64,000 nucleotides of DNA from Candidatus Levyibacteriota bacterium (GTDB lineage Bacteria; Patescibacteriota; Microgenomatia; Levybacterales; UBA12049): contig JACOXU010000003.1 in the NCBI GenBank assembly GCA_016182185.1, positions 123,881 through 187,880 on the forward strand. Direction: 5' to 3'. The translations under genes and the position numbers were made by a program. How positions within the stretch are numbered: the first letter of the stretch is position 1; every line of letters begins with the position of its first letter. The notes under the pieces are model-generated. The model ran no database searches, was not told where the DNA came from, and saw only the letters and a program-made list of their open reading frames with translations. Positions 3,339 through 64,000 of the stretch are shown piece by piece.

Positions 3339-3466
3339 AATGATAAATTTCTAATTATTCTAATTTCTAATTGATCTAAACAAATTCCAATTTCAAAATT
3401 TCCCAAATAAAACTTTATGCTTGTAATTTTTTAGAAATTAGGTTAATTAGATCAATTAGGTCAATT
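3339..3466. repeat. intergenic AT-rich degenerate tandem repeat array (AATTAGRAATT family)
   Basis: CTAATTTCTAATTGATCTAA ... TTAGAAATTAGGTTAATTAGATCAATTAGGTCAATT. Confidence 0.5.
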
Positions 3467-15516: not shown

Positions 15517-15523
15517 AATATTC

Positions 15524-16204
15524 TTAATTCTTAAATCTTAAATCGTAAATCTTGATTATATCGGCAGTCACTTTCTCGACTGATTGTTCTCCATTTATTG
15601 TAATAATTTCATTGCTAAACTTTTTTGCGAGCCAGTCATATCCTTCCTTTATTTTCTTAAGTTTTTCCAAAGTTTCATAATATTCCTGTTTCTTATCCAT
15701 CTTTGCCAGTCTTTTTACTGCCGCCTCTTCTGAGATTTTAATGTAAAAAGTAAAATCCGGAATTATAAACTGATGATACATTGACAAAATACTTTGAGCC
15801 ACAAGGAGTATCTCGCTACCATTTAATTTATCTGACTTATCCAAAATCCCATAGGCAACTGATGACCAGAAACATCTATCAGTAATAATTATTTTTCCTT
15901 GTTCCAAAAACGGTTCAATAGTTGTCTTTGAGTGTACTTCCCGATCCGCTGCAAACAAATACTGAAAAGAGGAAGCAGGAAGTTTTATATTGCCCTGAAT
16001 AACATTATGAATAAGATCGCCGATTGGAGGTTTTCTGGTGGGCTCATGTGTTAATAAAACTTTTTTCCTTTTTTCTTCAAAATACTCTTTTAATTTTTCT
16101 GCCTGGGTTGACTTGCCGCTTCCGTCAATTCCTTCAACTGCAATATATCTACCTTTATACGGATTTCTTCTAAAATCTATATCGAACGAAACATGGTACT
16201 TCAT
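15524..16204 (-). CDS. tmk: thymidylate kinase
   Basis: 226 aa; P-loop IAVEGIDGSGKSTQ. Confidence 0.85.
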   Translation of the reverse strand: MKYHVSFDIDFRRNPYKGRYIAVEGIDGSGKSTQAEKLKEYFEEKRKKVLLTHEPTRKPPIGDLIHNVIQGNIKLPASSFQYLFAADREVHSKTTIEPFLEQGKIIITDRCFWSSVAYGILDKSDKLNGSEILLVAQSILSMYHQFIIPDFTFYIKISEEAAVKRLAKMDKKQEYYETLEKLKKIKEGYDWLAKKFSNEIITINGEQSVEKVTADIIKIYDLRFKN

Positions 16205-16348
16205 AAATTAAATTCTAAACTCAAAGCATCAAATCACAAATAATATCCAATTTCCAATACTCAAAATTCAAAATTGTTTTGGATATTAGAATTTTATATT
16301 TGTAATTTATTTGAAATTTGTAATTCTGGATTTAGAATTTAAGCAAGA

Positions 16349-17610: not shown

Positions 17611-17661
17611 TGTCTTTTTTACTATTGACAAAGCATCTTTAACTATTCTATTCTTGTATTA

Positions 17662-20253: not shown

Positions 20254-20330
20254 CAAGAAAAACAAAATATTTAATACTAAATTAAGTGTAGGTTTTGATT
20301 TTTGCCTTTTGAATTTTAAATTTAATTAGT

Positions 20331-23400: not shown

Positions 23401-23404
23401 TTTG

Positions 23405-23477
23405 TGGGCAGCCGTGGAATCGAACCACGTACCTCTTCTTTATCAGAGAAGCGTTCTAACCGGTGAACTAGCTGCCC
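23405..23477 (-). tRNA. tRNA-Ile (anticodon GAT)
   Basis: cloverleaf on minus strand: acceptor GGGCAGC/GCTGCCC, anticodon stem CTTCT/AGAAG with loop CTGATAA, T-arm GGTTCGATTCC. Confidence 0.75.
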
Positions 23478-24259: not shown

Positions 24260-24276
24260 AGAAATAATAATTTGGG

Positions 24277-24349
24277 AGGCGCAGGGGGGAGTTGCACCCC
24301 CGAATAGATGTTCTGCAGACACCCGTGTTAGCTACTTCACCACTGCGCC
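24277..24349 (-). tRNA. tRNA-Cys (anticodon GCA)
   Basis: acceptor GGCGCAG/CTGCGCC, anticodon stem GGTGT/ACATC loop CTGCAGA, T-arm GGGGG-TGCAACT-CCCCC (non-canonical T-loop). Confidence 0.6.
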
Positions 24350-24402: not shown

Positions 24403-26610
24403 TTATCTCACCATGAAGCTTATCTCAACTGCAGTGAATCCTTTTCGTTCAATTTTTTCTATAACAGGCGGTATGTAAGAATAACTGGGGCTATTATCGA
24501 GATTTTCTATATAAAAAACTATATTTCGATAGGTGTCAGGAGATGGAGCTATTACGAGCGGGAGGATTTTTTTAGATGTCGCATCATCAAACAAAGATAT
24601 AAAAATATAAGAAGAAACTGCTCTCGTTTTTACAAATTCCAGGGTATCGGCAGATTCTTTCTCGTTTAAGCCCAACCGGCTAGATATTTGCTCAATTAAA
24701 TCCTGGACTTTTTCTTTCCTGACTACATATCCCTTAACTGGTTTATCAACATTAATCGCAGGCTCATAATCGAATTTAAAAGAAGAAACTCTTTCATTTC
24801 CGCTTGTAAAAGTACCATCACCATTTAGAATAACATTTAATCCCAAAGCTGGACTATAATTAGTATTTAAAGGATAAATGGCCGTAGTAGAATAAACAGA
24901 AACGCTTTTCCCTTCCTGTCCATACAGATACAATGGGCTGTCAGAGCATGATCCTGCCAAGTCTATCCAGGCATCGTGAAAACACTGTTGAAATTCAGGA
25001 TCTTCGGGATAATCAGGATCCCACACGCGGTTTTTCATGATATCCAATGGGTAATCTTTTCCGAGAATTTCATTGCATTGCGCAGCAGCTCTCGCGTAGC
25101 AAGCATTGGGATTTATGACATGCTTAGGAGCTGAACTTGGTGCCGGCTGAGGAGGCACAGGATCAGATTGCTGAACCAGTCTCTTGGGAGCAAGGGATGG
25201 TTTAAGTTCAAATGTTTGTAGTTGGATTTGGTTTCTTAATTGATCTGTTCCTAGAGAAAGAAGCTTAGACGAAAAATAACCCTGCGGTTTCAGATCAATC
25301 ATTTGCACGAGGCCTTTATCAAGATTCACCGTTGTTCTACTTTGAGCTGGTATATCCAGTAAATACATTGAATTAATTAATTGACTGTACTTCCCGCCAA
25401 GATTTCCCAGTTCTGAATCAGAGGTTGTTTTATCTACAGCAAGATACTTATTTTCAGAAACTAATGTAAGTATGTCCGTCAATTTTGTCCCAGTCGCAAT
25501 GTTATCTAAATTAATTTTTTGAGAGTTATTTGTGCTGACATTATAGAAATACGTGCCAGACAAAGAATCGTTTTTTGAAATTAATCTATAAACAATATTT
25601 CCGGTGAGCCTATCCCAGTTGGGATCTGAAAATATATCGTCGTTACTAGTTGCAAGAAGAGTCTTTTTCTGCCTTGTGGCAAGATCGAAGATTTCAAGCG
25701 TGTTGGATGACAAAATCGCCCTTCTGAATCCGTCAGTCTCCGAAGTTCCAGAACCTTTACGTCCATCGTAGCCTGCAAAAAGCAGTTTCTTGCCGTCCGG
25801 CGATACTTCAGGCTGGGTACTTATCATCCCATTGGTAAGTGAGGGAATATCCTGTTTATTCGTGCCTGTAAAATTTGAAACCGAGACACCGTAACCCCAG
25901 CCAGCACCTGAATTTGGGAGAAATTTATCAGTAAATAAATCTCCGCTGTCAGTTATGGCAATCGGATACGCCAGAGTAACTCCAAGTCCTGAAGTTTCAT
26001 CGTAGATAAGATTTTTTTGTGCTGGATTTGATGTATCAAGTGTATATACCCTTGATTTCCCCCCAAAGAGTGCGCCTCCCTCAGATGGGCTTACTTCCCA
26101 AACTGCCAAATATTTGGAGTTTGGGGAAACGACATAATCATCAATCCCATACCCGCTATCTGCGGTTATAACAGTTGTTTCTGTCTTAGTATCAAATGCT
26201 CTAATTACGACTTGTTTCCCGTAGTCATTTGCATCGGTATCTTTAATATAGCTAATTCTTTTCGAATCTAAAATTTTGACATGTTTTACATTCGATGGAA
26301 GCTCAACAAGTATACCGCTTTGACTTGTTGATAGGTCCAAAACTGAAATTGTTGATTTGTCTTTACTCCAAGATCCATAGATAAATGAAACTGGAGCGAT
26401 GTATGCGGTTTGTGTTTTATTTTTGTCGTCTTGCTGCTGTGGAGGATTATTTGCCTTATCGTTTTGGCTTTTTATAAATATGCCTCCTGCCAAAGAAAAA
26501 ACAACCAGAAAAAAGATTAAAATCCATTTGGCGCTATCAGAACCCAGACCAAAAAACCTTTTGACTTGAGGTGCTTCAGAAGGTAAATTTTGGGCAGTAT
26601 TTTCTTCCAT
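24403..26610 (-). CDS. large membrane-anchored extracellular protein, beta-propeller-like repeats plus C-terminal LNEKES domain
   Basis: 735 aa; N-terminal TM; TolB/WD-like SPDGKKL, SPNSKYLAVW repeats; C-terminal 250 aa homologous to 6712..8085. Confidence 0.5.
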   Translation of the reverse strand: MEENTAQNLPSEAPQVKRFFGLGSDSAKWILIFFLVVFSLAGGIFIKSQNDKANNPPQQQDDKNKTQTAYIAPVSFIYGSWSKDKSTISVLDLSTSQSGILVELPSNVKHVKILDSKRISYIKDTDANDYGKQVVIRAFDTKTETTVITADSGYGIDDYVVSPNSKYLAVWEVSPSEGGALFGGKSRVYTLDTSNPAQKNLIYDETSGLGVTLAYPIAITDSGDLFTDKFLPNSGAGWGYGVSVSNFTGTNKQDIPSLTNGMISTQPEVSPDGKKLLFAGYDGRKGSGTSETDGFRRAILSSNTLEIFDLATRQKKTLLATSNDDIFSDPNWDRLTGNIVYRLISKNDSLSGTYFYNVSTNNSQKINLDNIATGTKLTDILTLVSENKYLAVDKTTSDSELGNLGGKYSQLINSMYLLDIPAQSRTTVNLDKGLVQMIDLKPQGYFSSKLLSLGTDQLRNQIQLQTFELKPSLAPKRLVQQSDPVPPQPAPSSAPKHVINPNACYARAAAQCNEILGKDYPLDIMKNRVWDPDYPEDPEFQQCFHDAWIDLAGSCSDSPLYLYGQEGKSVSVYSTTAIYPLNTNYSPALGLNVILNGDGTFTSGNERVSSFKFDYEPAINVDKPVKGYVVRKEKVQDLIEQISSRLGLNEKESADTLEFVKTRAVSSYIFISLFDDATSKKILPLVIAPSPDTYRNIVFYIENLDNSPSYSYIPPVIEKIERKGFTAVEISFMVR

Positions 26611-26887
26611 TACTTAAATAATAGTGGAAAAATATTCGTCGGTCAAGAGGTGGTAGGAAACTATTGAATAGAATTTATCTACCCTCAGTATAACGGATAG
26701 ATCAAGCGCTATTCATTCTCCCGCCAAAGGCGGGATTCGCTTGTGGCCAATACACTTTCTCGCAAAATTTCTACTCTTAACCTAATTAGAAATTAGAAAA
26801 TTAAAAATTAGAAATTCCACTCCGCGTCAGCGGAGGGGCTTAGGTGTCTTCTCTCAATCCAATACTGAGTAAAATCGAAGTATTAGA

Positions 26888-28340
<1,453 letters not shown>

Positions 28341-28678
28341 TTCCTACCACTTCCTGACCGAGAAACCCTGAGTTTATCGAAGGGTTTCATTTCAAGAAGT
28401 AAATCCAAAATGTGTGCTGATTCACTTTTTAAAGTGCAACTTTTATATAAGATCTTAAGACAATCCACCTTGCCTTACCACTCGGCTTTAGATTCCATTC
28501 GAATACGCCTCGTGGAGCAGCTTTTGGCGGATAATGAATTTTTAATTTTCAAATGAGCATTAAAAATCCCGCCAAAGGCGGGTTCTATATTCCTTTTTTA
28601 GGAACCAGACTTTCGGCGAAAGGTCTTACATATCTTCAAATTTGCTTACCCAGTTAAAGGTTTACAAACAGTAAATCT

Positions 28679-29734: not shown

Positions 29735-30257
29735 ATTTTATTGCTTCAAATAGAACAATTCCTAAGGAAACAATGACATTCAAACTTTTGTTGACTCCCC
29801 ACATTGGAATTTCTGCTATATGATCTGCTATATCTAAAACCTCCTTTGAAACGCCTATGGTTTCATGTCCTACAACAAATGCAACAGGAAATTTATAATC
29901 GACTTTATTGTATGGAATACTTTTGGAATTCTGCTCAATGGCAATAATTTTGACTTTTGAATTTTGACTTTTGAGTTCGCGGATTGCTTGAACCGCGGTT
30001 GAAGAATAACTCCACGCCACCCATTCCGTTGTATTGATTGAGGCCTTTTTGATGCGAGAATTTGGCGGAGTCTCGGTTTCCCCGCACAAAATGACTTTTT
30101 CCGCCGCTACGGCATCGGCAAGCCTGAATATCCCGCCCACATTATAACTATCAAGTACATTGTCTACTATTATATATATGGAATTTTTCTTAATCTTTTT
30201 AAGATCTTTTTGCAAAGGAGAACTTGATCTTAATTCTTTGGCTCCCAGCTTGATCAT
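29718..30257 (-). CDS. SpoU/TrmH-family RNA 2-prime-O-methyltransferase
   Basis: 179 aa; SPOUT motifs VVGHETIGVSKEVL and IPMWGVNKSLNVIVSLGIVLFE. Confidence 0.7.
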   Translation of the reverse strand: MIKLGAKELRSSSPLQKDLKKIKKNSIYIIVDNVLDSYNVGGIFRLADAVAAEKVILCGETETPPNSRIKKASINTTEWVAWSYSSTAVQAIRELKSQNSKVKIIAIEQNSKSIPYNKVDYKFPVAFVVGHETIGVSKEVLDIADHIAEIPMWGVNKSLNVIVSLGIVLFEAIKYGKNR

Positions 30258-34555: not shown

Positions 34556-35657
34556 CTGAATAGGTACTATTACCCACATTTTTAACTATCCCCTTAATCT
34601 CCATCATTGATAAAATACTCCCGAGTTTTGAGGAATCAATCCTTGTCTTTCGGGCAATTTCATCAAAATACAATTCCTCATTCCTCAAAGCTTGTAAAAT
34701 CAATCTCTCTTCTTTACTCTCTGTTTTATATTTTGTAGTTTGGGTTTTTGGATTTATTTGAGATTTGTAATTTGGAATTTGTAATTTTAATTCATTTAGT
34801 ATATCTTCAGTAGACGTTACCAACTTCGCTCCCTTATTTATCAGCTTATAAGGTCCTTTCGACAAGACAGAATTAATCGGACCCGGCACTGCGAAAACCT
34901 TGCGATTAAATTTGAAGGCAAAATCAGCTGTAATAAGAGAGCCCGAATCCTCTGCTCCTTCTGTGACTAAAACTGCCTTGGATAATCCTGCTATAATTCT
35001 ATTTCGTGAAGGGAAAAGACCCTTGCCTGGTAAGTAACTTAGGGGAACCTCGGAAATTACGCAGCCTCTGCCATTAATAATTTTGTCATAAATATTTTTA
35101 TTATGTATCGGCGTGCAGCAATCCACTCCACATCCCAAAACTGCGATAGTCTTCCCGCCATTTTCAAGAGTAGATAAATGCGAAATCCCGTCAATGCCTA
35201 ACGCCAGACCAGATACTATTGTAAAACCTGATAAGCTTAAATCTTCAGCAAACTTCTGGGTGACTTCCTTTCCATAATTTGTTGGCTTTCTTGATCCGAC
35301 AATTCCAATTGTCTGTTTCAATTCATCTTTAAACTTCTCAAATCTTAATCCTCTGCCAAAAAGGACAAATGGCGGATTGGGAATCTCAAGAAGAAGTTCG
35401 GGATAACTTGTGTCATTACTTGTGATGAACCAGGCATTCTTCTTTTTTAATTTTTCCAAGTAATCTTTTATAGAAAATTCATTCCTGAATTTATCAAACT
35501 TAATTGTCAGCTTGTCCCCCAAAACTTTTTTTAAATCTGTTATTTCGGCTTTCCATGCTTTTTCTGCTGTTCCAAACTCGGCAAGCAGTTTTTTAAATTT
35601 CAAAGGTCCTACTCCAGAAAACACCGAAAACCCCAACCAATAATTTCTTTCCTCCAT
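34545..35657 (-). CDS. dprA: DNA processing protein DprA (Smf) with C-terminal winged helix
   Basis: 370 aa; Rossmann core GIVGSRKPTNYG...GLALGIDGISH; linker codes an intergenic-type repeat word. Confidence 0.8.
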   Translation of the reverse strand: MEERNYWLGFSVFSGVGPLKFKKLLAEFGTAEKAWKAEITDLKKVLGDKLTIKFDKFRNEFSIKDYLEKLKKKNAWFITSNDTSYPELLLEIPNPPFVLFGRGLRFEKFKDELKQTIGIVGSRKPTNYGKEVTQKFAEDLSLSGFTIVSGLALGIDGISHLSTLENGGKTIAVLGCGVDCCTPIHNKNIYDKIINGRGCVISEVPLSYLPGKGLFPSRNRIIAGLSKAVLVTEGAEDSGSLITADFAFKFNRKVFAVPGPINSVLSKGPYKLINKGAKLVTSTEDILNELKLQIPNYKSQINPKTQTTKYKTESKEERLILQALRNEELYFDEIARKTRIDSSKLGSILSMMEIKGIVKNVGNSTYSVKE

Positions 35658-42584: not shown

Positions 42585-42713
42585 CTGGATAGGTCAATTT
42601 GTAATTCCCATCATACCATCTTGCCCAAAGATTTCCAATATGATAATCTTAAATAAATTTTTAATTTCTAATTTAGGTGAATTAGGTTAATTAGAACAAT
42701 TAGGTCAATTTAG

Positions 42714-45044: not shown

Positions 45045-45611
45045 ATGCTCAAAATTATTACTGCTCCTGATCGAGTTCTCTCTCAAAGAGCAAAAAGAGT
45101 TAAAAAGATAGATAAATCCATCTTGGAATTTGTTGAAGAGATGAAAATGGCGCTTCTTGCGGCCAAAGATCCCGAAGGCGTGGGTCTTGCCGCACCTCAG
45201 GTTGGCAAATCTCTTTCAGTTTTTATCACAAAGCAAAACGCTAAGTCACCCATCAAAGTCTTTATAAATCCCCACCTTAAACTTGATCAAATAAATTTTA
45301 ATCCTGAAAATAAAAATCAAAAAAGAGGAGCAAAAAAATCAATTTCAAAAAGACTAGAAGGATGTCTTTCTCTTCCGAACATTTGGGGACACGTAAAACG
45401 TGGCTCCAATTTATCGATTTCGTATCAGGATGAAAATGGCAAAAATCATTCGAAAAAATTTACTGGGTTTATGGCCACAATAATTCAACACGAAATGGAT
45501 CATTTAAACGGCGCTCTTTTTACCAAAAGAGTTCTTCAACAGAATGGAATTCTCTATAAATCACATAAAAATGAACAAGGCGAAGATATTTTTGAAGAAA
45601 TAGAAGTGTAA
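45045..45611 (+). CDS. def: peptide deformylase
   Basis: 188 aa; GVGLAAPQVG, EGCLS, QHEMDHLNG motifs. Confidence 0.85.
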   Translation: MLKIITAPDRVLSQRAKRVKKIDKSILEFVEEMKMALLAAKDPEGVGLAAPQVGKSLSVFITKQNAKSPIKVFINPHLKLDQINFNPENKNQKRGAKKSISKRLEGCLSLPNIWGHVKRGSNLSISYQDENGKNHSKKFTGFMATIIQHEMDHLNGALFTKRVLQQNGILYKSHKNEQGEDIFEEIEV

Positions 45612-45694
45612 ATTAACCTAATTAATCTAATTGACCTAATTTCTAAATTGGGATTCTGTTTAGGTTAACTAGAAATTAGAGTGATTAGAAATTT

Positions 45695-46519
45695 ATGAAG
45701 ATCATCTTCTTTGGAAGCTCAAAATATTCGGTCATTGTTGCTAAAAAACTCCATCAGGAATTCAATTTAAAACTTGTTGTTACTACTCAAGCCGATTCCT
45801 TTCCTGTTAAATTTGCAGCAGAAAATAATATCGACCATAAGGTTGTCTCGAAGTTTGATAGAGAAACTATCGAACAGATAGAAAAATACAAACCCGATTT
45901 TAATGTTGTGGCTGATTTTGGCAAAATTCTTCCCGAAGAATTGCTCAAACTACCTAAATTTGATTCTTTAAATGTCCATCACTCACTTCTTCCCAAATAT
46001 CGAGGGCCATCCCCTGCTCCCACTGCGATTTTAAATGGAGAGAAAGTAACCGGCGTGTCAATTATTTCTATGCAAAGGGGCGTGGATCAAGGACCAGTCT
46101 TTCTCCAAAATGAATATGAAATAAAAGATATCGATACAACTGATTCGCTTCTTACCAAATTGAATGTTTTGGGCGCTGATTTAGTATCTAAAGTCATTAA
46201 AAATTTTGAGAATGAAAAGCCTATTCCGCAAGATGAATCCGAAGTGACGATTACATATCTTTTAAAAAGAGCTGATGGTTTTATTGATATAGATAATCCT
46301 CCACCGCCTGATAAATTAAATCGAATGATCAGAGCTTATTTTCCTTGGCCCAATGTTTTCTTTGAGGCTAAATTAAATGGAAAGGGGAAAATTATTAAGC
46401 TCTTGCCGGATAAACAAATTCAAGCCGAGGGAAAAAAGCCAATGAGCTATAAAGACTTTATCAATGGCTATAAAGAGGGAAAATATTTACTCCGCAAAAT
46501 TAACCTAATTTCTAATTGA
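45695..46519 (+). CDS. fmt: methionyl-tRNA formyltransferase (short C-terminus)
   Basis: 274 aa; SLLPKYRGPSP motif, follows def. Confidence 0.8.
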   Translation: MKIIFFGSSKYSVIVAKKLHQEFNLKLVVTTQADSFPVKFAAENNIDHKVVSKFDRETIEQIEKYKPDFNVVADFGKILPEELLKLPKFDSLNVHHSLLPKYRGPSPAPTAILNGEKVTGVSIISMQRGVDQGPVFLQNEYEIKDIDTTDSLLTKLNVLGADLVSKVIKNFENEKPIPQDESEVTITYLLKRADGFIDIDNPPPPDKLNRMIRAYFPWPNVFFEAKLNGKGKIIKLLPDKQIQAEGKKPMSYKDFINGYKEGKYLLRKINLISN

Positions 46520-46610
46520 TCTAATGTCTAAAACTTTGTTTTGAATTTAAGATTTTGAATTTGGAATTTGTTTAGAAATTGGAAATTAGGATTTAGAAAT
46601 TTGGTGCTAT
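46500..46610. repeat. intergenic degenerate tandem repeat array (GGAATTTGG / AGAAATT units, about 11-bp period)
   Basis: TTGAATTTAAGATTTTGAATTTGGAATTTGTTTAGAAATTGGAAATTAGGATTTAGAAATTTGG. Confidence 0.5.
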
Positions 46611-49165: not shown

Positions 49166-49470
49166 CAATCCAACCTATTTTACCAAAAAGAAAATGAAAT
49201 TAATATCCCCTTTGGGGCCTGAACCAGAAGATTGTAGGAGAGATAAATTCGTCCTTGATACCGAGAACAGCTGGTGTCTCCCCATATATGTAATTTAGGA
49301 AGGCTATTAAATTTGGCGCACCAAACCTAAACTTGCCTCGTCCCCCCCCTTTTTTAAAAAAGAGGGGGTACCTCATATGTGGTGAATTTGTAGAGGAAAA
49401 ATATCCAACTTTCTCTAGTATCAAAGAACAAGAATAGTATAAATCTATTTACTGAAAAAAGTCAATCCCA

Positions 49471-49860: not shown

Positions 49861-49983
49861 CTCCTTTGCCCGCCGAAGCCTTGTGCGAAGGCGGGTTCGC
49901 GCTTTACCAAGCTATAAAATCCCACTCAAAAAGTCAACCCCTTTCTTGCAAATAAATTGCTAATTGGTATAATTATCAACCGT

Positions 49984-52126: not shown

Positions 52127-52310
52127 AACAAACTAGTCTATCGTCATATGGTAAATGGTAAATTGTAAATTGTCAATCCCGCCAAGAGGCGGGACTCTTT
52201 ACATGTCAGTTAACTTTTGTTAAAATAACAAAAGCAAATTCTAAATTCAAAATCCTAAATTCTAAATAAACTCAATATCAGAATTTTGAAAATTAAAAAT
52301 TATTTGGGAT

Positions 52311-52529
52311 TTGGTGCTTGAAATTTGGGATTTATTTTTTGTTATGGCAACCACACCAACGGTTTTCTTAAAGGAAGTTCAGGATGAGCTTAAGAAGGTT
52401 ACCTGGCCCACCAGAAGTGAGGTTATAAGACTCACCGCTGTAGTAATCATTGTAAGTCTTATCGTCGGGGTTTTTTTAGGCGGATTGGATTTTGTTTTTG
52501 TCAACGTTACAAAACTATTACTAAAATAG
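52311..52529 (+). CDS. secE: preprotein translocase subunit SecE
   Basis: 72 aa; KVTWPTRSEV + single TM; precedes nusG. Confidence 0.8.
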   Translation: MVLEIWDLFFVMATTPTVFLKEVQDELKKVTWPTRSEVIRLTAVVIIVSLIVGVFLGGLDFVFVNVTKLLLK

Positions 52530-52568
52530 TTTAGAAATTAGAAATTAAGATTTAGAAATTTTAAGGAT

Positions 52569-53159: not shown

Positions 53160-53261
53160 TTCTAAAATAGAAAATCAAAAATAAAAGATAAAAAATACAT
53201 ATGAAAAATAAAATAGAAAGAAATATTTTATATTTAATTTTTAATATTTAATATTCCAACC

Positions 53262-53684: not shown

Positions 53685-53773
53685 CTCAGAGTTAAAAACT
53701 AAGAGTTAAAAGTTAAAAAAGTTTTTAGTTATTCGTTTTTAGTTCTTAGCTTGACTGACTGAAAGGAAAAAAC

Positions 53774-55959: not shown

Positions 55960-56170
55960 CCCTAGTTAGGTTTCAATAAACTTCTTGACTATTCCAAAAT
56001 GTTTTGCTAAACTTACAAAACCTAAGACAGCAAGAGTTCAGCGGCTAGCAATTAGTAATTAGCCACTAGAACATAAACACTTGCCGAGGATATTAGCAAC
56101 TAGCCACTAGTAGCTGGATACTAGTTGCTTCGCTACTCGCTTAGGCGAGTTTTTTTATGAGCAAATAACT
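55960..56170 (+). promoter_or_regulatory. rplJ (L10) leader: promoter TTGACT-17-TAAACT, stem-loops and intrinsic-terminator-like attenuator (CTCGC-TTAG-GCGAG-T7)
   Basis: about 190-nt leader with alternative stems (GGCTA...TAGCC; GCAACTAG...CTAGTTGC) ending in hairpin+T-run 56136..56157 just before rplJ ATG. Confidence 0.45.
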
Positions 56171-56719: not shown

Positions 56720-56805
56720 AAATTCAAAACAGTTTGGAATTTGGGATTTTGAGAATTGGAATTTGTTTAGAATTTAGATATTTGGATTTAGAAATTACCG
56801 ACCGA
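56720..56805. repeat. intergenic degenerate tandem repeat array between rplJ and rplL
   Basis: GTTTGGAATTTGGGATTTTGAGAATTGGAATTTGTTTAGAATTTAGATATTTGGATTTAGAAATT. Confidence 0.5.
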
Positions 56806-57350: not shown

Positions 57351-57471
57351 CGGAGGGCAACAAGTTGCCCCTTGACAAGAAGTGTTATGGTTTGTTATTT
57401 TGTAGATAGTTAACTTATATATTGATCCTAATTAAATATGGATTGATTAGAATAAATATAGTCTTGAGCCT

Positions 57472-57687
57472 ATGAGTAATCAAACTCTATCAATCAATAA
57501 TCTTCCTGATCTTCTTACTGTTCGTGAAGTTGCTCAAATTCTCCGTGTTTCTCCGCTTACTATAAAACGCTGGGGCAAAAGAGGTAAGCTTCCTGCCATC
57601 CGTATAAATTCCCGTGGCGACCGAAGATATAAAAAAGAAGCAGTAATGTGGCTACTTGGCATACAGGAAAAAAGAGAAATCCTCTAG
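57472..57687 (+). CDS. excisionase-family (MerR-like) HTH DNA-binding protein
   Basis: 71 aa; LLTVREVAQILRVSPLTIKRWGKRGKLPAIRINSRGDRRYKKE matches helix_turn_helix excisionase-family pattern. Confidence 0.55.
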   Translation: MSNQTLSINNLPDLLTVREVAQILRVSPLTIKRWGKRGKLPAIRINSRGDRRYKKEAVMWLLGIQEKREIL

Positions 57688-57781
57688 AAAATTCCTAAAT
57701 CCTAATTACCCTAATTACTCTAAATAAATCCCAAGTCCCAATTTTAAATTTTTAGATCAATTAGGTCAATTAGAAATTAGG
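57688..57781. repeat. intergenic degenerate tandem repeat array (AATTAGGTCAATTAGAAATTAGG family)
   Basis: CCTAAATCCTAATTACCCTAATTACTCTAAAT...TTAGATCAATTAGGTCAATTAGAAATTAGGTTAATTA. Confidence 0.5.
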
Positions 57782-58135
57782 TTAATTATTAATACTTAAT
57801 ATCCTTCCAAATATTCTGATTAGAGCTTCGCTTTCATCCTCAATAAACCCGATTGTCTGATGAGGCTTTCTACCCTCTGAGCTCTTCAGGATTTTTACCC
57901 AGTATTTAGTTTCTCTCATTTCTCTTTTGGCCTGTGTCATTTTAAACACGAAGTCTTTCCCTTCTGCAACTTTGGCTTTTTCATAAACCTCCTCTGCCAT
58001 TTTGATCTTGCGCGTAATCTGATTGGAAAGTACAAAATTCACACTGCTGTAAGGAAGTTTCTCCCTAAGCTCCATTGCGAAAGACAGGAGGTTCAATATC
58101 CTTCTCTCTATATAATGCGTTAGTTCAATACTCAT
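57782..58135 (-). CDS. four-helix-bundle protein (PF05635 / bAvd-like)
   Basis: 117 aa; RETKYWVKILKSS ... EALIRIFGRIL matches conserved ETxYWL core of family. Confidence 0.5.
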   Translation of the reverse strand: MSIELTHYIERRILNLLSFAMELREKLPYSSVNFVLSNQITRKIKMAEEVYEKAKVAEGKDFVFKMTQAKREMRETKYWVKILKSSEGRKPHQTIGFIEDESEALIRIFGRILSINN

Positions 58136-58197
58136 ATTATAAAATTTCTAAATCCTAATTATTCTAATTACTAATCAAATCCCAATTCTCCAATTTA

Positions 58198-58557
58198 TTA
58201 TTTAACTTTTTTATATATTGAATTGAAAATTAAGTTTAGTTCTTTTGCTTCCTGCCATAATATTCTTGCTTCTTCTTTTAACTGTGGGGCAGCAACTACA
58301 ATCATTCGCAGAAAATGTTTTACTTCTCTTGCTTCTTTTTTGCAGATTCCTATTTTATGCTTAAAATCTTGTTTACTTTCTGCATCATCCGCTTCTGAGT
58401 AATTTGCGCCAATACTTGTCTCTGCTTTAACAAGCTGACTAATCAAAGGGTTGGTTATTGGGTTTTTAGAAATTGACTTACAAAAGATAATGACATTCTT
58501 TCCAAACTTTGCCGTCCTCTCTTCCAGATCGTACTTGTTATTTATTTTTTTATTCAT
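58198..58557 (-). CDS. four-helix-bundle protein (PF05635 / bAvd-like)
   Basis: 119 aa; QLVKAETSIGANYSEADDAESKQDFKHKIGICKKEAREVKHFLRMI matches 23S-rRNA-IVS/Avd family core. Confidence 0.6.
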   Translation of the reverse strand: MNKKINNKYDLEERTAKFGKNVIIFCKSISKNPITNPLISQLVKAETSIGANYSEADDAESKQDFKHKIGICKKEAREVKHFLRMIVVAAPQLKEEARILWQEAKELNLIFNSIYKKVK

Positions 58558-58606
58558 TTATTAGGTTAATTAGGTCAATTAGAAATTAGTTCAATTTGCT
58601 GGTGAG
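58558..58606. repeat. intergenic repeat array between giant gene and 4HB gene
   Basis: TTAGGTTAATTAGGTCAATTAGAAATTAGTTCAATTT. Confidence 0.5.
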
Positions 58607-61600
58607 CTACCGTTCGTCGACTATCCACCAATCAAACTTGATATCTCGACTGTAGCGTCTTTCAATCTCAACTGTGAAGCCTGAGCCGGCTGCTTTATTC
58701 GTAACCACGAGCGGCTGGCCTCCGGTAAGGCTTGTGGCAGTCACAAATATTCTGGATTTATTGGTCACGGCAGCCGTATCAACTACCACACTCGTATCTC
58801 CTGCGAGCAGGGTCCCCGAACCCAGCGAAGCCGCGTTTGACGCGGTGGTATCGATATTGACTTTCTTGGCTGTGATTTCACCTTCTGTTTTTATATTTCC
58901 ATTGGTATCAATCGTGACTTTGCCTGAGAGTATATTTATCCCACCCAAGCCATTGCTCTGAAGGTTCAAATCTCCAATACTATTTATAGATGCTCCCCCA
59001 TCTCCATTGTTAAGCGATGAGTCAAGTCCGTGAATTGACAAGAGCCCTGCTGCGATGTTACCGGTCACTCCCAGATCTGCAGTCGTCGTTCTGCCCAGCA
59101 CCATCAAGTTGCCTGATATTGTCGCGCTCTCTGCGTTGATATTGGTCAGATCAGGTAGAAGCGAAGCCGCGTTTGACGCGGTTGAGACACCCAATACTGC
59201 TCCATTCAGCATGCTCTGCAGGAAGGCAGATTCTGATGCCAGCTGATCCACTCTTTGTGAGAGACTATTGGTATTAAGCTCTAAGCCGGTTACTCTATTT
59301 TGCATATCCGCGAACAACGGATCACTACTCAAATCAAATGTCCCCGAAGATGAAGCTGACGATACGGGATCGTTACTTGGGTTGATCAGTCCCAGCAACT
59401 GGCTCGCCTCCTCCGCACTAAACTGCGCATATGGATTAGTCACGCTCCCATCTGCTGCAATTTGAATCCTCGGATCTCTCCAGGAAAGGTTTATAAATAC
59501 TGAAATTTTACCAATAATATCCGGATCTGAGTTGCTGTAGCCTTCAATAGCAATCCCTATAACCATTCCCGGCTTTGTTGCCTTCATGGCTACACCGGGC
59601 TTACTTGATGCAGTAAGAGAATCACCCGGCATTATTTCTCCATTTTCCGCAGATACTTTTACAGGAACACGACCAGAAAGAGCAACAGCGACTTCTTTTA
59701 CTGATCGGGGGTCTGTTTTCTGACCATGCCCACCAAGCAACACACCTGGTTTTTCTGAGATGACACCAAGCATTGCAGAATTTGTGGATGACTTTTGAAC
59801 AAATTCTGTTTCGTAGTCATGTTCAAAAGGATTATCAGGTGGGGTATCAGGTTTGGGCTGATAATTTAAACTTACAACGTCCCCAGCTTCTATTGAATCA
59901 TCAAGCGTCGGGAAATTTTCAGCTATATCATCAATCGTAAAGCTTGAACTAATACCATATACAGTACCTGCAGTTCTTGAAGCATCAATACAGTCGTCTG
60001 CAGTATCTAGAGAATCATCTGCGCAGATAGCTCCATAGGCTAGTATACCATTGCCGCCTATATTAGTAGTCACATTAGCTCCGGCTGCTCCGACAAGCAA
60101 ATCCCCCCCGCTTCCTCCTGTGACAGTAAATATAGTAGCCCCCGAGGCTGAGGCGGTAAAAATATCTAGACCAGATGTTTGGTTTATAACTGCTGCTGCC
60201 TTACCGCCTGATGCTCCGGAAAGATTAAGCATCGAACCAAGACCCGAGCTTGTGACGTTAAGTACGGCCCCTGTTGAAAGCCCATTACTCTGGGTAAGAG
60301 AAAGAACATTTGCAGTATCGGTACAGCCGCCAGTGGTAATACTGCAATTGGATGTCAGATTTGCCAATGAGCCAGATAGACTAACAGATCCAACTGGTAT
60401 CATAGAGACTCCATTGTCTACCCAATTGCCTGACCCCGTATTAGACCACGAATGAGTTGGATTCTCTTGCGTGCTGTCTGAATAAGCTACGGATGGATTA
60501 AGAAATCCGCCCTGTCTTTTTGTATTAACCCCCGTAGTCGTGAGTGTTCCGCTAACCGCTGAGGCTACTATATCTATTGCCGTTCTGCCCAAAGAGTTTG
60601 TGATGGCATTATTAGGCGTAGTACTAGAACCAGTTGAAGAGGTACAACCTGCAAAAGCGCTTCCTACAGTTTGATTAATGTTAAAGTAGCTGGCAGTAAT
60701 AACATAACCACGATCACTTCCACTTCCATTGGTGAAGTTTACACTTGTTGTATTAGCGCCTGAAGATGAAGAATCCCCCATTGCTATAGCAAAAATATCC
60801 GTAGCTACACTAGTGCCATTTGTAGCCTGACTACAGACTCTCGTAGCGGAACTTCCGCCGTACGTTACAGTATTAATTGTTTCAGAATTTGCATTCTGAT
60901 ATGCAATGGCTATTACCACCATACGGTTGCTTCCTGCTCCCAAAGTATGGCTGTTAGTTATTGTAGTATTAGTAAGAGTCCAACTACTTATAACAGAGGA
61001 GTCATAAACACTTGTATTTATGCTTAAATTTCGATTTAGATTTAGCAAATTACCGGAGTCAGTATTGATAGCTGTATATGTAGCGGTATGATCTCCATTG
61101 ATAAGATTGGCAGAAGTCAAATTGGCAGAAGTGGAAAGGACATTTAGGCCCTTACCCGTAGTTAGGGAATTTGCGGCGATTGAGAACGCGTCTCCTGTAG
61201 TTGCAGAAGAGGTTGCAAAGACAGACCCCCAATTATTTATAGTAAAGACTGTGCTTCCCGATTTTGATGCTGTGAAAATATCTGCATTTGGTGAAAGGTC
61301 TGTTTGATTTACTCTAAGAGCTGCGTTATTCCCGCTGATGCCGGATATGTCTAATAATCCTATTGGACTTGTATTTCCGATACCTACTCTGCCAATATTA
61401 TTTATAACAAATTTTGTAGAGCCTGAAGAAGAGGCGGATAGAATATAATCATTTGTATTAGTTCCAGTTTGGTTGAGAATCATCAAAGCGTTGTGTCCGT
61501 TGTTGCCTGATAGATCAAGGAGTCCAAGTGGGCTTGTGTTGCCGACCCCGACCCTACCAAGATTGTTGATGACAAATTTGGTAACACCAGAGGATGAGGC

Positions 61601-64000
61601 AGCCAAAACATAATCGTTGGCATTGGTACCAGTCTGGTTAAGGATCATTAAGGCGTTTTGTCCGTTATTACCAGATAGATCAAAAAGACCTAAGGGAGTC
61701 GAATTCCCAATCCCAACTTTACCGAGTTTATTTATAACGAACTTAGTTGTCCCGCTCTTTGAAGCTGTAAAGATGTCATTATTCCCTGTCTGATTGATAA
61801 TTGCAGCTGCCTTACCACCGGAGGCTCCTGAAATATTTAGCATTGGCCCAAGACCTGAGGTGGCGATGTTGAGTACCGCACCTGTCGAAAGACCATAACT
61901 CTGGTTAAGAGAAAGAAGATTTGAACTATCATTGCAAATTCCAGCTGTTACAGTACAATTAGAGGTTATTGACGCAAGGCTTCCCGTAAGATCTGCTGTG
62001 CCTACTCCGGGAACGAGTGCCACTCCTAGATGATACCAAGATAAATCAGTACCACCGGCAGTCCAGGCCATGTTGGTGCTTGCACCTGTAGCTGATTCTT
62101 CCGAATAAGCGGCTACATAGACTGTCGAGCCGTATGTTTGGTTCCATCTCTGCGTTTGATTACTTCCTCCAGGAAGTGAGAGTGTCGGGTTTATGCCTGC
62201 ATTCAGCATAGAATCTATTACAACATCCCCGCTCTGGCTTGTAACATTTAAGCTTGGGCTGGTACCCGAACCTGTTTCGGTCTGACAAGTAGCACGAAAT
62301 GGGCTTGTTTGAGAGACTCCGCTATAAGTTGTTGCTAAAGCGACCCAGGTCTCACTATTACCTAATGTTATTGATACAGTATTTGAACCCGAACTTGGAT
62401 TAAGCAAATAATACATATCTATGGCTTCTGTTCCTGGTGAAAAAGTACAGCCTGGAATCAAAGTGAGCGCTGAACCGTTATAAGTAATAGATGATATTCC
62501 AGCATTTCCTGCTCTTGATACGGTAACTATTAATATACGGTTGTCACCCGTTCCGGTAGTGTGTGAAAAATTAGCTGAACTACCTGTTTGCTCAGCCAGA
62601 GTGGTACTATTATCATAAGCAATAGTTTGAGTTGAGGTATTCAGAGTATAATTTCTACTAAGGCTTGCTAAATTTCCAGAAATATTAGCATTACTCGTAC
62701 CGGTATACGTATTGGTCTGGTTTACATTTAATCCTTTACCACTCGTCAGCGAATTTGCTACGATTGAGAAGGCGTCTGTCGAAACTGCAGAAGAAGTGGC
62801 ATAGATACCTCTATTTATAGTATCAAAATTGAGCATCGAACTTCCGGCAGCATCTGCAATCTGAAGAGCTGTTGATGAATTGGTCAAAGGCAGCCATTGC
62901 GCACCTGCGACGGAGACCAGATTTCCTCCGTTTGTAATTCTGAACTTGGTCGTTCCGCTTGTTGAGGCGGCTAGAATGTCATTCGTGCTTGCGCCGGTTT
63001 GGTTGATGATAAGAGCGGCGTTTCCTCCCTGATTTCCTCCTTGCAAATCCAGAAGCGCAGTTGGGGTGGTTGTGCCGATGCCCGCCCAGACATAATTCGC
63101 TCCAGTCCCTCCAAGAACCAGCCTATTGCTTGCTCCCACAATCGCGTTGTATCCAAGGGCTGTAGAACCGTTGATGCTGTTTGATGATGTTTGAGATAGA
63201 TATCCTATGAATGTGTTGTTGCTTCCCGAGGTGAGTGGAACACCTTGAGTGCCTGCTGAAACTCCGATGGCTGTATTGCCCGAGCCTGTAACATTTTGAA
63301 GAGCAGCGTTTCCCAACGCAGTGTTATTGGTTCCTGTATTTCCAGAGCTAAGACCTACGAAGGTGTTCGTTCCTCCGGGTGCTCTGAATAGATTATTATT
63401 GGATTGTTTTATGATAATCTCTCCGGTCGTATCTCCTCCGATAGTCAAAGTCCTTTGGGCGGTTGACTGTATACTTCCGCCTGCTCCGAGCGAGAAATTA
63501 CCGGCGATAGAAGCAGTAGGAGTACCCGAATTGATATTCAAGACTGCGAACTTTGCAGATTGGGTCGTGGTTCCACCCAGAAGAAGATCAACTGTATTGG
63601 CAAAGGCAGGAGTATAAGCTCCACTCACCAGATCCCATCTTGCGCCTGCACAGTCACTTGAAGCAGTAACTATACCATTTGAGGTAGTTACACAGGAGCC
63701 TGATACATCTGCTCCGGCTGTGCCATTGATCCTGAGCTTACTTGATCCAGCCAAGCTGATATTTATATCTCCTGTGTCTCCTCCGCCCAAGGTCAGAGTT
63801 TGTCTATTCGTAGACGTAAGACTTCCTGCTGTATCTATAGTAAATCCTGCAGCAGATGAAGCATTACCGCTGTTGGTGACTCTGAATTTAGTTGCACCGG
63901 ATGAAGAGGCGGCAAGAATATCACCGTTTGAAGTAGAATTATTGACTATAAGAGTCGCGTTGTTGCCTGCGTCTCCGGTTATTTCAAGAAATGCTTTAGG
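58607..64000 (-). CDS. giant Gly/Ser/Thr/Asn-rich repetitive surface protein (partial; N-terminus beyond window)
   Basis: ORF track 58607..63790 (1727 aa) starts at an in-frame TTG; reading frame stays open to position 64000; tandem about 57-aa repeats (NQTGTN..DY.L.ASSSG.TKFVINN.GRVG.GNTSP.GLLD), two copies of about 180-aa domain shared with 17662..20253. Confidence 0.6.
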   Translation of the reverse strand, partial: PKAFLEITGDAGNNATLIVNNSTSNGDILAASSSGATKFRVTNSGNASSAAGFTIDTAGSLTSTNRQTLTLGGGDTGDINISLAGSSKLRINGTAGADVSGSCVTTSNGIVTASSDCAGARWDLVSGAYTPAFANTVDLLLGGTTTQSAKFAVLNINSGTPTASIAGNFSLGAGGSIQSTAQRTLTIGGDTTGEIIIKQSNNNLFRAPGGTNTFVGLSSGNTGTNNTALGNAALQNVTGSGNTAIGVSAGTQGVPLTSGSNNTFIGYLSQTSSNSINGSTALGYNAIVGASNRLVLGGTGANYVWAGIGTTTPTALLDLQGGNQGGNAALIINQTGASTNDILAASTSGTTKFRITNGGNLVSVAGAQWLPLTNSSTALQIADAAGSSMLNFDTINRGIYATSSAVSTDAFSIVANSLTSGKGLNVNQTNTYTGTSNANISGNLASLSRNYTLNTSTQTIAYDNSTTLAEQTGSSANFSHTTGTGDNRILIVTVSRAGNAGISSITYNGSALTLIPGCTFSPGTEAIDMYYLLNPSSGSNTVSITLGNSETWVALATTYSGVSQTSPFRATCQTETGSGTSPSLNVTSQSGDVVIDSMLNAGINPTLSLPGGSNQTQRWNQTYGSTVYVAAYSEESATGASTNMAWTAGGTDLSWYHLGVALVPGVGTADLTGSLASITSNCTVTAGICNDSSNLLSLNQSYGLSTGAVLNIATSGLGPMLNISGASGGKAAAIINQTGNNDIFTASKSGTTKFVINKLGKVGIGNSTPLGLFDLSGNNGQNALMILNQTGTNANDYVLAASSSGVTKFVINNLGRVGVGNTSPLGLLDLSGNNGHNALMILNQTGTNTNDYILSASSSGSTKFVINNIGRVGIGNTSPIGLLDISGISGNNAALRVNQTDLSPNADIFTASKSGSTVFTINNWGSVFATSSATTGDAFSIAANSLTTGKGLNVLSTSANLTSANLINGDHTATYTAINTDSGNLLNLNRNLSINTSVYDSSVISSWTLTNTTITNSHTLGAGSNRMVVIAIAYQNANSETINTVTYGGSSATRVCSQATNGTSVATDIFAIAMGDSSSSGANTTSVNFTNGSGSDRGYVITASYFNINQTVGSAFAGCTSSTGSSTTPNNAITNSLGRTAIDIVASAVSGTLTTTGVNTKRQGGFLNPSVAYSDSTQENPTHSWSNTGSGNWVDNGVSMIPVGSVSLSGSLANLTSNCSITTGGCTDTANVLSLTQSNGLSTGAVLNVTSSGLGSMLNLSGASGGKAAAVINQTSGLDIFTASASGATIFTVTGGSGGDLLVGAAGANVTTNIGGNGILAYGAICADDSLDTADDCIDASRTAGTVYGISSSFTIDDIAENFPTLDDSIEAGDVVSLNYQPKPDTPPDNPFEHDYETEFVQKSSTNSAMLGVISEKPGVLLGGHGQKTDPRSVKEVAVALSGRVPVKVSAENGEIMPGDSLTASSKPGVAMKATKPGMVIGIAIEGYSNSDPDIIGKISVFINLSWRDPRIQIAADGSVTNPYAQFSAEEASQLLGLINPSNDPVSSASSSGTFDLSSDPLFADMQNRVTGLELNTNSLSQRVDQLASESAFLQSMLNGAVLGVSTASNAASLLPDLTNINAESATISGNLMVLGRTTTADLGVTGNIAAGLLSIHGLDSSLNNGDGGASINSIGDLNLQSNGLGGINILSGKVTIDTNGNIKTEGEITAKKVNIDTTASNAASLGSGTLLAGDTSVVVDTAAVTNKSRIFVTATSLTGGQPLVVTNKAAGSGFTVEIERRYSRDIKFDWWIVDER
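61390..61900 (-). repeat. intragenic tandem repeats, about 171-nt unit x3, inside giant gene
   Basis: units share about 80 percent identity (…CAAATTTGGTAACACCAGAGGATGAGGCAGCCAAAACATAATC… vs …CAAATTTTGTAGAGCCTGAAGAAGAGGCGGATAGAATATAATC…). Confidence 0.6.

Follow-up and report, generated by a model that had tools for sequence, protein, structure and literature searches.

The 64,000-nucleotide (nt) stretch of contig JACOXU010000003.1 analysed here (the window), from a Candidatus Levyibacteriota bacterium, carries frr, rseP, mreB, def, fmt, dprA, a 16S rRNA gene and a series of genes that includes secE, nusG, rplK, rplA, rplJ and rplL, and many of the spacers between its genes hold A+T-rich tandem arrays of the words AATTAG and CTAATT. 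These arrays are the two arms of a dispersed imperfect palindrome of 85-130 nt. Read in the direction of its flanking genes, the element runs from the upstream stop codon through a C-arm of 3-4 CTAATT cores at 7- or 9-nt spacing (AAATTGACCTAATTGATCTAATTAACCTAATTTCTAA), an asymmetric central core (TTGGGAnTTGGGATTT; TTGGRAnTTGGGATTT when derived from the element contexts) and a G-arm of 3-4 AATTAG cores (TTTAGGTCAATTAGAAATTAGAGTAATTAGAAATTT) to the downstream start codon. A longer form has the same arms and central core with a gene of the PF05635 family (S23p, '23S rRNA intervening sequence protein', IVP) between the C-arm and the core, and the short copies are the same element without this gene. 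The 64 kb contain at least six full or split copies in addition to half copies, and the individual features are:

46496..46606, plus strand: full element without an open reading frame (ORF) in the convergent fmt/rpmB (L28) spacer, with a C-arm overlapping the fmt stop codon, a TTTGG-type core and a G-arm
45612..45694, plus strand: full ORF-less element occupying exactly the def-fmt spacer between TAA stop and ATG start
3339..3466, minus strand: full ORF-less element in the frr-rseP spacer, sense on the minus strand, with a 38-nt module (module A) at 3430-3467
57688..57781, minus strand: full ORF-less element directly 3' of the stop codon of the first IVP-like gene (in coordinate order), convergent with an HTH_17 gene
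42593..42713, minus strand: degenerate copy in the divergent mreB/wzy spacer, whose module-A-like array (42671-42711) abuts the wzy start codon
2180..2215, minus strand: solitary C-type arm in sense orientation directly 3' of the rseP stop codon, complementary to the G-arm upstream of rseP
52530..52568, plus strand: G-arm-only copy that fills the secE-nusG spacer, 89% identical to 46565-46602
58558..58606, minus strand: C-arm of the split cassette, after the stop codon of a 1727-aa ORF and before the IVP start
58198..58557, minus strand: PF05635 gene for a four-helix-bundle protein, between the C-arm and the core plus G-arm
58136..58197, minus strand: core (TTGGAGAATTGGGATTTG) and G-arm of the split cassette, ending at the start codon of the next gene
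57782..58135, minus strand: the more divergent of the two IVP-like genes, preceded by a G-arm and followed by a full element

The arrays are asymmetric between strands and occur as pairs of complementary arms, namely a G-poor arm built of CTAATT, CAAAT and CCCAA and a C-poor arm built of AATTAG, TTTGG and TTGGGA, and as single strands such arm pairs are predicted to form long imperfect hairpins (folding z-scores of -2 to -4.8 for the dyads of the window). The four full ORF-less copies, with z-scores from -2.07 to -4.83, are palindromes able to form a hairpin. The copy in the fmt/rpmB spacer, whose neighbours are supported as fmt and L28 by Pfam, has a predicted RNA folding energy of -26.1 kcal/mol (z -4.45); that between frr and rseP, flanked by genes with the Pfam domains RRF and Peptidase_M50, reaches -26.7 on the sense and -20.5 on the antisense strand (z -3.62 for the sense strand); and those in the def-fmt spacer and 3' of the IVP-like gene have z-scores of -2.07 and -4.83. 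All four belong to the alignment of full copies (A2; ten copies from six loci, the window among them), and the nhmmer profile of these ten finds them with E-values of 8.8e-17, 3.1e-21, 8.6e-19 and 1.8e-16, respectively; the degenerate mreB/wzy copy is matched with 2.5e-7. The two flanks of rseP, with a G-arm upstream and a C-type arm downstream, form a predicted duplex with a z-score of -4.53. Dispersed copies within the window also retain the order of their unit variants: 3436-3467 and 42680-42711 are 97% identical over 32 nt, and 3430-3467 is 92% complementary to 45610-45647 over 38 nt. Since this order is kept, the arrays of the window are not independent products of slippage.

The window was compared with 97 related loci (designated by L numbers; 1.05 Mb with the window included), the relatives of its L10, NusG and DprA proteins being Candidatus Levybacteria and other Patescibacteria; the DprA of one Levybacteria metagenome-assembled genome at NCBI is identical to that of the window. 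The profile of the ten full copies gives 23 matches, ten of them with E < 1e-15, and defines a recognisable consensus over the whole element, with gaps of -5 to +15 nt between the full copies and both of their flanking genes. The 38-nt module recurs at non-orthologous sites in L029, L039, L077, L054 and L007 with 1-5 mismatches, in genomes whose NusG proteins are only 77-81% identical. The element is present or absent at orthologous spacers, occurs at non-orthologous spacers elsewhere, and is more conserved than its neighbour genes. For example, the def-fmt element of the window is 83% identical to that of L054; def and fmt themselves, which flank it, are 62% and 58% identical at the DNA level and 55% and 43% at the protein level. 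In L098 the two genes overlap and have no element in between, and the secE-nusG spacer of L029 contains a full element where the window has only a G-arm. Furthermore, orthologous nusG-rplK and rplK-rplA spacers are bimodal in length, either at most 20 nt or about 60-140 nt, and it is the long ones that carry arrays (median lengths with and without arrays of 78 and 16 nt for nusG-rplK, and of 115 and 4 nt for rplK-rplA). The bimodal lengths and the def/fmt overlap in L098 indicate that the elements are discrete insertions.

Owing to its asymmetric core the element has an orientation, and in co-directional spacers ten copies are sense and one is antisense. Across all loci, spacers with heptamer arrays have a mean folding z-score of -2.2, with 51% below -2, as compared to -1.1 and 25% for spacers without them; in the window the sense strand folds better in eight of nine array spacers. 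Folding z-scores were used in place of a test for reverse-complementary 6-mer partners, which is noisy owing to low complexity. Across the clade there is no preference in arm order (C-arm first in 89 cases, G-arm first in 88), so that the uniform order in the window marks one element family and is not a rule. Two further contigs of the source genome (L099, L100) are 100% identical and show no strain variation. A scan of viral contigs with CTAATTN3CTAATTN3CTAATT was abandoned as too generic, its matches being unrelated tandem repeats of giant viruses and phages. Other families of element show like behaviour: in L045 nusG is flanked by two near-identical 77-nt palindromes (9921-10000 and 10589-10665), and in L033 and L038 arms with the 8-nt units AACCCAAT and ATTGGGTA bracket nusG and rplK, which places each of the two genes between complementary arms, with flank-duplex z-scores down to -10.7.

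The gene-bearing form in the window comprises C-arm, PF05635 ORF, core and G-arm at 58136-58606. Its product matches PF05635 with an E-value of 3.1e-11 and the PDB structure 2rld with 4.3e-10, and its 5' and 3' flanks form a predicted duplex of -22.8 kcal/mol (z -2.08). The neighbouring IVP-like protein matches PF05635 with 3.5e-4, which is below the curated cutoff, and groups with the IVP homologs of L001, L004, L002 and L022; its flank duplex has a z-score of -2.62. Homologs of the protein encoded in the cassette at 75-85% identity fall into more than 120 clusters, labelled Levybacteria, Daviesbacteria, Curtissbacteria and Taylorbacteria. The same order of C-arm, PF05635 ORF, core and G-arm is found in L047, L222 (Daviesbacteria), L223 (Curtissbacteria), L224 (Taylorbacteria) and L225, each time among different host genes: the four copies in L222-L225 lie by pheT and a penicillin-binding protein gene, inside an rfb operon, at prgI/traC and at zwf/gnd. 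An inverted-repeat stem enclosing a sense PF05635 ORF, as in rRNA intervening sequences (IVSs), thus occurs in the window and in all five of these loci, and all six cassettes have the ORF on the same strand as the upstream host gene. The flank duplex has a z-score of -2.84 in L047 and of -4.4 to -8.9 in three of L222-L225, with L225 (+0.67) as the exception, and L224 bears an additional ORF-less copy in a neighbouring spacer. Over 23 PF05635 genes the complementarity of the 5' and 3' flanks has a mean duplex z-score of -1.40, versus -0.16 for other genes (Mann-Whitney p = 5e-4), and in five subfamilies the PF05635 type and the arm unit type correspond one to one.

The subfamily of the PF05635 genes at the site of this cluster, 3' of rplL, varies with the genome, and the site may be a hotspot of insertion. 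A small HTH_17/MerR-like gene of excisionase type (57472-57687) adjoins the cluster in the window; in L054 (16664-16870) a small gene, whose C-terminal residues when read by eye resemble those of the window HTH_17 gene, lies beside an ORF-less element, and L007 (approximately 13536-13745) has a small unannotated ORF at the equivalent position beside a PF05635 gene.

An initial annotation of the window had described the arrays as a pervasive intergenic family with a period of 10-11 bp, present in most spacers. The repeat words do occur in all 14 stretches that it listed, 46500-46610 included, and their excess is not a matter of base composition. By a crude ORF map 9.3% of the window is intergenic, with a G+C content of 31% versus 40% in coding DNA, and the commonest intergenic 8-mers (TAGAAATT, TTAGAAAT, AATTAGAA and AATTAGGT) are 30-60 times denser there than in coding DNA. 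Against shuffles of each spacer that preserve dinucleotides, AATTAG is seen 38 times where 8.1 are expected, TTAGAAAT 19 times where 1.2 are expected and TTAGGTCAA five times where 0.03 are expected; window-wide, TTAGAAATT with one mismatch allowed has 98 matches versus 62.9 +/- 7.0, a number reached in none of 100 shuffles. The period was misjudged. Tandem Repeats Finder (TRF) reports units of 7 nt (TAGAAAT) and 9 nt (AATTAGGTC), and the pooled autocorrelation of the spacers peaks at lags 7, 14 and 21 (z 7.6, 3.7 and 2.5) and is flat at lags 10 (z 0.1) and 11 (z -0.8); the 11-mers noted earlier combine one unit of 7 or 9 nt with AATT from the following one. Arrays are present in about 20 of the 43 spacers of at least 30 nt (two of these counted by eye), i.e. 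in roughly half, so that they occupy many spacers and not the majority, and most of one stretch taken for a spacer, 15517-15550, belongs to the 3' end of tmk. Eight of the 11 divergent spacers of the window lack an array, and the loci taken together have 2.63 arrays per kb of co-directional and 1.72 per kb of divergent spacer.

Parallel element families with other units of 7-9 nt exist in other genomes. In the 1.05 Mb period 7 is the commonest in the TRF output (387 rows, with 216 for period 9 and 148 for period 8), and each 10 kb of intergenic DNA contains on average 12.9 arrays of period 7 or 14, compared with 1.34 in the same length of coding DNA; head-to-tail 7-nt units in at least three copies are thus found at many intergenic loci of the window and its relatives. 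The heptamers of the loci comprise 135 different units, AAATTAG being the commonest, and orthologous spacers differ in their unit by genome (CTAGTTG, TCTTAAA, GTCTACN, AGCAATT, CAGTTAT), the last being the TAACTGA unit of PMC4679880. Two arrays share a unit in 5.7% of pairs from the same locus and in 1.1% of pairs from different loci, a fivefold difference. L016 and L018, whose NusG proteins are 89-91% identical to that of the window, are devoid of the AATTAG unit type. Long CAGTTAT/GATAACT dyads, of the TAACTGA heptamer, lie at 7054-7185 of L003 and 16291-17050 of L023, both Levybacteria relatives. The window itself has related arrays and dyads of other types:

56733..56797, plus strand: arrays of TTTGGAA/TTTAGAA heptamers between rplJ and rplL, with the Shine-Dalgarno sequence GGGAGGTG after them
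52227..52335, plus strand: CAAAT/TTTGG-type dyad in the secE 5' untranslated region (UTR), 3' of a conserved promoter at 52198-52226 (z -3.97)
16205..16348, minus strand: CAAAT/TTTGG-type dyad in the dcd-tmk spacer (z -4.03)
53160..53261, plus strand: dyad of AAAATAA and AATATTT heptamers in the nusG-rplK spacer
53685..53773, plus strand: dyad of AGTTAAA and AGTTTTT heptamers in the rplK-rplA spacer

In L019 the secE 5' UTR dyad and the promoter are arranged as in the window, and the relatives have other unit types in the rplJ-rplL spacer. No Rfam family matches the elements, the matches in the window being confined to the 16S rRNA, tRNAs and the L10 leader. An identity as intrinsic (Rho-independent) terminators was rejected: no terminator-like site coincides with an array, and the stems are AU-rich and have no T runs. 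A role in supplying stop codons in all frames was likewise set aside, for while stop triplets are enriched in the heptamers (72 vs 60.9 on the sense and 81 vs 60.4 on the antisense strand), the 9-nt units do not fit it.

Two observations tie the arrays to bona fide RNA stems, namely a pairing across the 16S rRNA gene and a heptamer-extended hairpin of the L10 leader. The first involves the following feature:

26770..26816, minus strand: array just 3' of the 16S rRNA, whose bases 26796-26809 can pair without a mismatch with 28537-28550, which lies 5' of the 16S

A perfect complement of 14 nt across the 16S was reached by one of 300 shuffles, and going by the sequence this pair is likely a pre-16S processing stem. 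In the L10 leader (RF00557, 56003-56164, a match just above threshold) the loop of the first hairpin is longer by 30 nt of heptamers of the CTAGCAA/ATTAGTA type and the linker by 10 nt. The copies all lie in protein-gene spacers or beside the 16S and not inside an rRNA helix; the Rfam match for the small-subunit rRNA spans the whole model (1-1533), and there is no 23S rRNA gene in the window or the related loci. Nor do the elements show complementarity to 16S rRNA (z +0.6 and +1.0). The 16S gene (26887-28338, minus strand) stands alone, with no adjacent 23S, in an unlinked rRNA arrangement; downstream of it are a 735-aa ORF with no Pfam match (24403-26610) and then two tRNA genes (23404-23477 and 24275-24349), one for tRNA-Cys and one for tRNA-Ile. 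A second repeat family, of G+C-rich CCCGCC-AAAG-GCGGG hairpins (26720-26734, 28568-28582, 52178-52193 and 49869-49895), flanks the 16S with a member at either end and has another immediately 5' of the secE promoter, and in L019 (9837-10000) a similar GC hairpin is nested in an AATTAG element. The 5' part of the 16S gene also includes a 27-nt palindrome, CCCCTCTTTTTTAAAAAAGAGGGG (28144-28170), with a 96% complementary copy at 49344-49370 in an unannotated 74-aa ORF.

Heptamer arrays also occur in frame within coding DNA:

34730..34814, minus strand: dprA inter-domain linker, TTAAAAT TACAAAT TCCAAAT TACAAAT CTCAAAT
29946..29974, minus strand: SpoU methylase gene, encoding the peptide LKSQNSKVKI
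15522..15553, minus strand: TCTTAAA array encoding the C-terminal residues and stop codon of tmk

Residues ~288-310 of DprA, between the DprA domain and the winged-helix domain, are encoded by five NCAAATT units with a period of 7. The proposal that an element can insert in frame here holds only in part: the array is in frame and translated, and orthologs have the like, but the linker, variable in sequence, is of equal length in 20 orthologs and is for this reason not an element insertion. The linker DNA of three dprA orthologs likewise consists of heptamer arrays, of the window unit type in L097 and of GAATTAN in L096 and L098; in the latter two the third unit is altered to TAC or CAT exactly where an in-frame TAA would fall. 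This fits array formation and turnover in tolerant sequence, a process related to, but separate from, the palindromic element. The thyA gene (13942-14925, minus strand) has a 46-residue insert relative to E. coli ThyA, which is partly a Lys/Asn-rich stretch (14570-14630) encoded by an A-rich array with periods of 7, 9 and 27.

The element is an IVS-like and REP/ERIC-like palindrome with heptamer-type arms, which is real, abundant and widespread in bacteria of the candidate phyla radiation (CPR). Salmonella-type IVSs include ORF-less short hairpin versions, as do the elements described here. The closest parallel among gene-bearing forms is the IVS in the 23S rRNA of Coxiella burnetii, in which an S23p ORF lies in the loop of an inverted-repeat stem cut by RNase III, and tandem GACAGAT heptamers in strain-variable number lie just upstream of the ORF (PMC4990558). 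The rRNA IVSs of Coxiella and Leptospira (PMC4990558) share with the elements the long inverted-repeat stem with a sense PF05635 ORF in its loop, the variable-number tandem heptamers beside the ORF and a patchy, selfish-looking distribution. In contrast, our elements lie in mRNA intercistronic spacers, UTRs and rRNA flanks instead of a 23S helix, are pervasive, and have arms made wholly of 7/9-nt subrepeats; RNase III excision would apply to them by analogy only.

Like the repetitive extragenic palindromic (REP) and bacterial interspersed mosaic element (BIME) sequences, the enterobacterial repetitive intergenic consensus (ERIC) or intergenic repeat unit (IRU) sequences, the Correia or Neisseria miniature insertion sequence (NEMIS) repeats and sequences resembling miniature inverted-repeat transposable elements (MITEs), they are multi-copy imperfect palindromes of ~40-150 nt in transcribed intergenic regions, conserved across species in differing locations and found in some but not all orthologous spacers. 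The mRNA hairpins of Correia/ERIC-type elements can be cut by RNases. Unlike these families, our elements have no transposase or REP-associated tyrosine transposase (RAYT) partner that we could find, the linked gene encoding only a four-helix-bundle protein; their arms are tandem short repeats and their host is a CPR bacterium.

With the heptanucleotide repeats of cyanobacteria, Beggiatoaceae and Bacteroidetes (short tandemly repeated repetitive, STRR, or long simple sequence repeats, LSSR) they share the 7-nt unit, the intergenic location, often at start codons, and the many unit types, and both TAACTGA and TTTTGAA units occur in the window or its relatives. TAACTGA heptamers lie immediately before start codons, in spacers that seldom contain a ribosome-binding site (MacGregor 2015, PMC4679880). 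Sites for RNA-binding proteins such as S1, Csp and CsrA have been suggested as their role, and slippage has been put forward as the source of heptanucleotide repeats of this kind; TTTTGAA and GACCAAT repeats are known from Nostoc (bioRxiv 10.1101/2022.06.06.494920). Such repeats are described mainly as single direct arrays, with only one inverted heptamer set in the Beggiatoa genome, whereas the arrays here are complementary arm pairs of a defined element and are linked to PF05635 genes. Finally, pre-rRNA processing stems cut by RNase III resemble them as complementary flanks of a long transcript, as in the 16S-flank array and the arms around nusG and rplK in L033 and L038, but here the brackets enclose protein genes and PF05635 ORFs and cleavage would again be by analogy only. 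Our literature search returned no paper on such repeats in CPR bacteria, and a link between PF05635 and heptamers only in the Coxiella report.

We propose, with a probability of roughly 60%, that this palindromic element, with or without its PF05635 gene, acts as an intervening sequence of mRNA spacers that is processed by RNase III and whose repeats arise by slippage. The element itself, its insertion between cistrons and its sequence conservation are observed; the mechanistic part (co-transcription, stem folding, RNase III cleavage and an origin by slippage) we infer from them. The element would be transcribed within the host operon, pairing of its arms would give a long AU-rich stem in which the upstream stop codon comes close to the downstream start codon, and RNase III would cut the stem, as it does in rRNA intervening sequences and pre-rRNA stems. 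Such cleavage may disconnect the cistrons on either side, stabilise them or both, and set free the PF05635 message, while replication slippage would generate the 7-nt substructure, the variable unit number and the heptamer arrays in unconstrained coding linkers such as that of dprA. A scan of the window ORFs, apart from a few known or very large ones, found no RNase III gene.

Several points weigh against this proposal. Single arms or half-elements are present at 2180, 52530 and 56733, and the rplJ-rplL spacer folds poorly (z -1.30). Divergent spacers carry arrays too, at the 1.72 per kb given above. In the minimum free energies of array spacers from all loci the sense strand is favoured over the antisense by 64 to 52, which is not significant, and there is consequently no clade-wide G-U signature of selection at the RNA level; compensatory changes in the element alignment are seen in only two of 23 pairs, the copies being too conserved to vary. 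No transposase adjoins any copy, PF05635 being the only linked gene, and no mobility mechanism was identified; nor was a target-site duplication, although no systematic search for one was made. The gene calls in the related loci are crude ORF calls. Lastly, the arm sequences are conserved beyond what RNase III alone would require, which leaves room for a sequence-specific partner, and the PF05635 protein is the obvious candidate for it.

This raises a more far-reaching possibility, which we regard as tentative and rather doubtful: PF05635 proteins and their cognate heptamer arms may constitute a distinct class of selfish elements that insert between cistrons, and elsewhere into rRNA helices, ride on host transcription and do little harm owing to removal by RNase III. 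Each subfamily would recognise its own arm unit and promote the ORF-less copies, and the heptanucleotide repeats of cyanobacteria, Beggiatoaceae and Bacteroidetes could have a common origin in such elements.

An alternative that we consider unlikely is that the arrays are a functionless by-product, slippage with an intrinsic preference for 7 nt having filled unconstrained sequence. The diversity of 135 heptamer units, with different ones at orthologous spacers, is as expected on this account, as are the in-frame arrays in SpoU, tmk and the dprA linker of the window and its orthologs, the dominance of period 7 regardless of unit sequence and the want of a clade-wide strand bias in folding. Moreover, heptamers are the commonest long simple repeats in prokaryotes, for which polymerase slippage was proposed by Mrazek et al. 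2007, as that survey is reported in PMC4679880. Yet neutral slippage leaves the complementary arm pairs unexplained, and it is at odds with an order of unit variants that different genomes share over 38-90 nt at non-orthologous sites, 83% identity in a spacer whose neighbouring genes are ~60% identical, a constant cassette of C-arm, ORF, core and G-arm in six genomes and the 10:1 excess of sense orientation. Streamlined genomes of ~1 Mb, with ~9% non-coding DNA, would also be expected to shed junk.

Somewhat less probable still is a primary role in translation, with the stem clamping the stop codon to the start codon and hiding the ribosome-binding region, so that the downstream gene would be translated only once a ribosome on the upstream gene had opened the stem (coupling), or the arrays binding a protein of the S1, Csp or CsrA type. 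It would suit the position of the arrays, whose median distance is 12 nt from the stop codon (51% start within 12 nt of it) and 22 nt from the start codon, the ends of the elements abutting both codons, as well as the many downstream genes that have no obvious Shine-Dalgarno sequence despite the CCUCC tail of the 16S rRNA; the TAACTGA heptamers near start codons (MacGregor 2015), a unit found also in L003 and L023, are a precedent. It does not account for the fact that either a G-type or a C-type arm, depending on the genome, is found beside the start codon (89 vs 88), or for the elements at convergent gene ends, in a 5' UTR and beside the 16S rRNA, and an ORF-bearing loop fits simple coupling poorly.

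The initial annotation favoured a role at the level of DNA, in which A/T tracts phased with the helix bend it, or the arrays serve as UP-like elements of promoters or are bound by a nucleoid protein or global regulator; this now appears improbable. The sequences are indeed AT-rich and repetitive, conservation of the 38-nt module suits a sequence-specific binder, and an HTH_17 gene adjoins the element cluster of the window, as small genes do in L054 and L007. Nevertheless, there is no periodicity of 10-11 nt; with a period of 7/9 nt the A/T tracts are out of phase with the ~10.5-bp helical repeat, and a 7-nt spacing cancels planar bending. The sigma-70-type promoters that can be recognised (52198-52226, 55985-56013 and 57372-57401) lie outside the arrays, and a promoter consensus scan showed neither an excess nor a coincidence with them. 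Most divergent, promoter-only spacers of the window are free of arrays, which mostly fill co-directional stop-to-start spacers and are densest there, and the orientation of the element follows that of transcription. The many unrelated unit types, drawn from the 135 heptamers, at equivalent positions in the relatives likewise give no support to a single regulator.

Pairs of the Neisseria DNA uptake sequence (DUS) often form terminator-like inverted repeats, and a comparable motif kept by biased uptake and recombination in competent CPR cells would be conserved across genomes at non-orthologous sites and in inverted pairs at gene ends, as seen here in a genome that encodes DprA, but we give this the least credence of all, as L016 and L018 lack the AATTAG unit type, the motif is nearly confined to spacers, unlike DUS and uptake signal sequences (USS), and neither the full 85-130 nt architecture nor the ORF-bearing form is explained.

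The elements occupy about half of the spacers of the window in spite of the tiny, tightly packed genomes of CPR bacteria, and some copies are better conserved than adjoining essential genes; they are a major feature of CPR genome architecture that is undescribed in the searchable literature. Their link to PF05635 joins three old puzzles: the nature of rRNA IVSs, the role of the S23p/PF05635 protein and the pile-up of heptanucleotide repeats in some lineages. In practice they confuse gene callers and assemblers in CPR metagenome-assembled genomes, and under the IVS-like reading they would mark processing sites internal to operons.

Two other features of the window merit mention. The 1727-aa ORF preceding the gene-bearing cassette (58607-63790, minus strand) has no Pfam match and contains an internal 180-nt repeat (60176-60355 and 61787-61966, 76% identical); its product, as called here, is not on record in the contig index. 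At 17074-20981 there is a cluster of dockerin/cohesin-domain proteins (178, 863 and 216 aa), a surface-assembly machinery that is unusual for a CPR genome.

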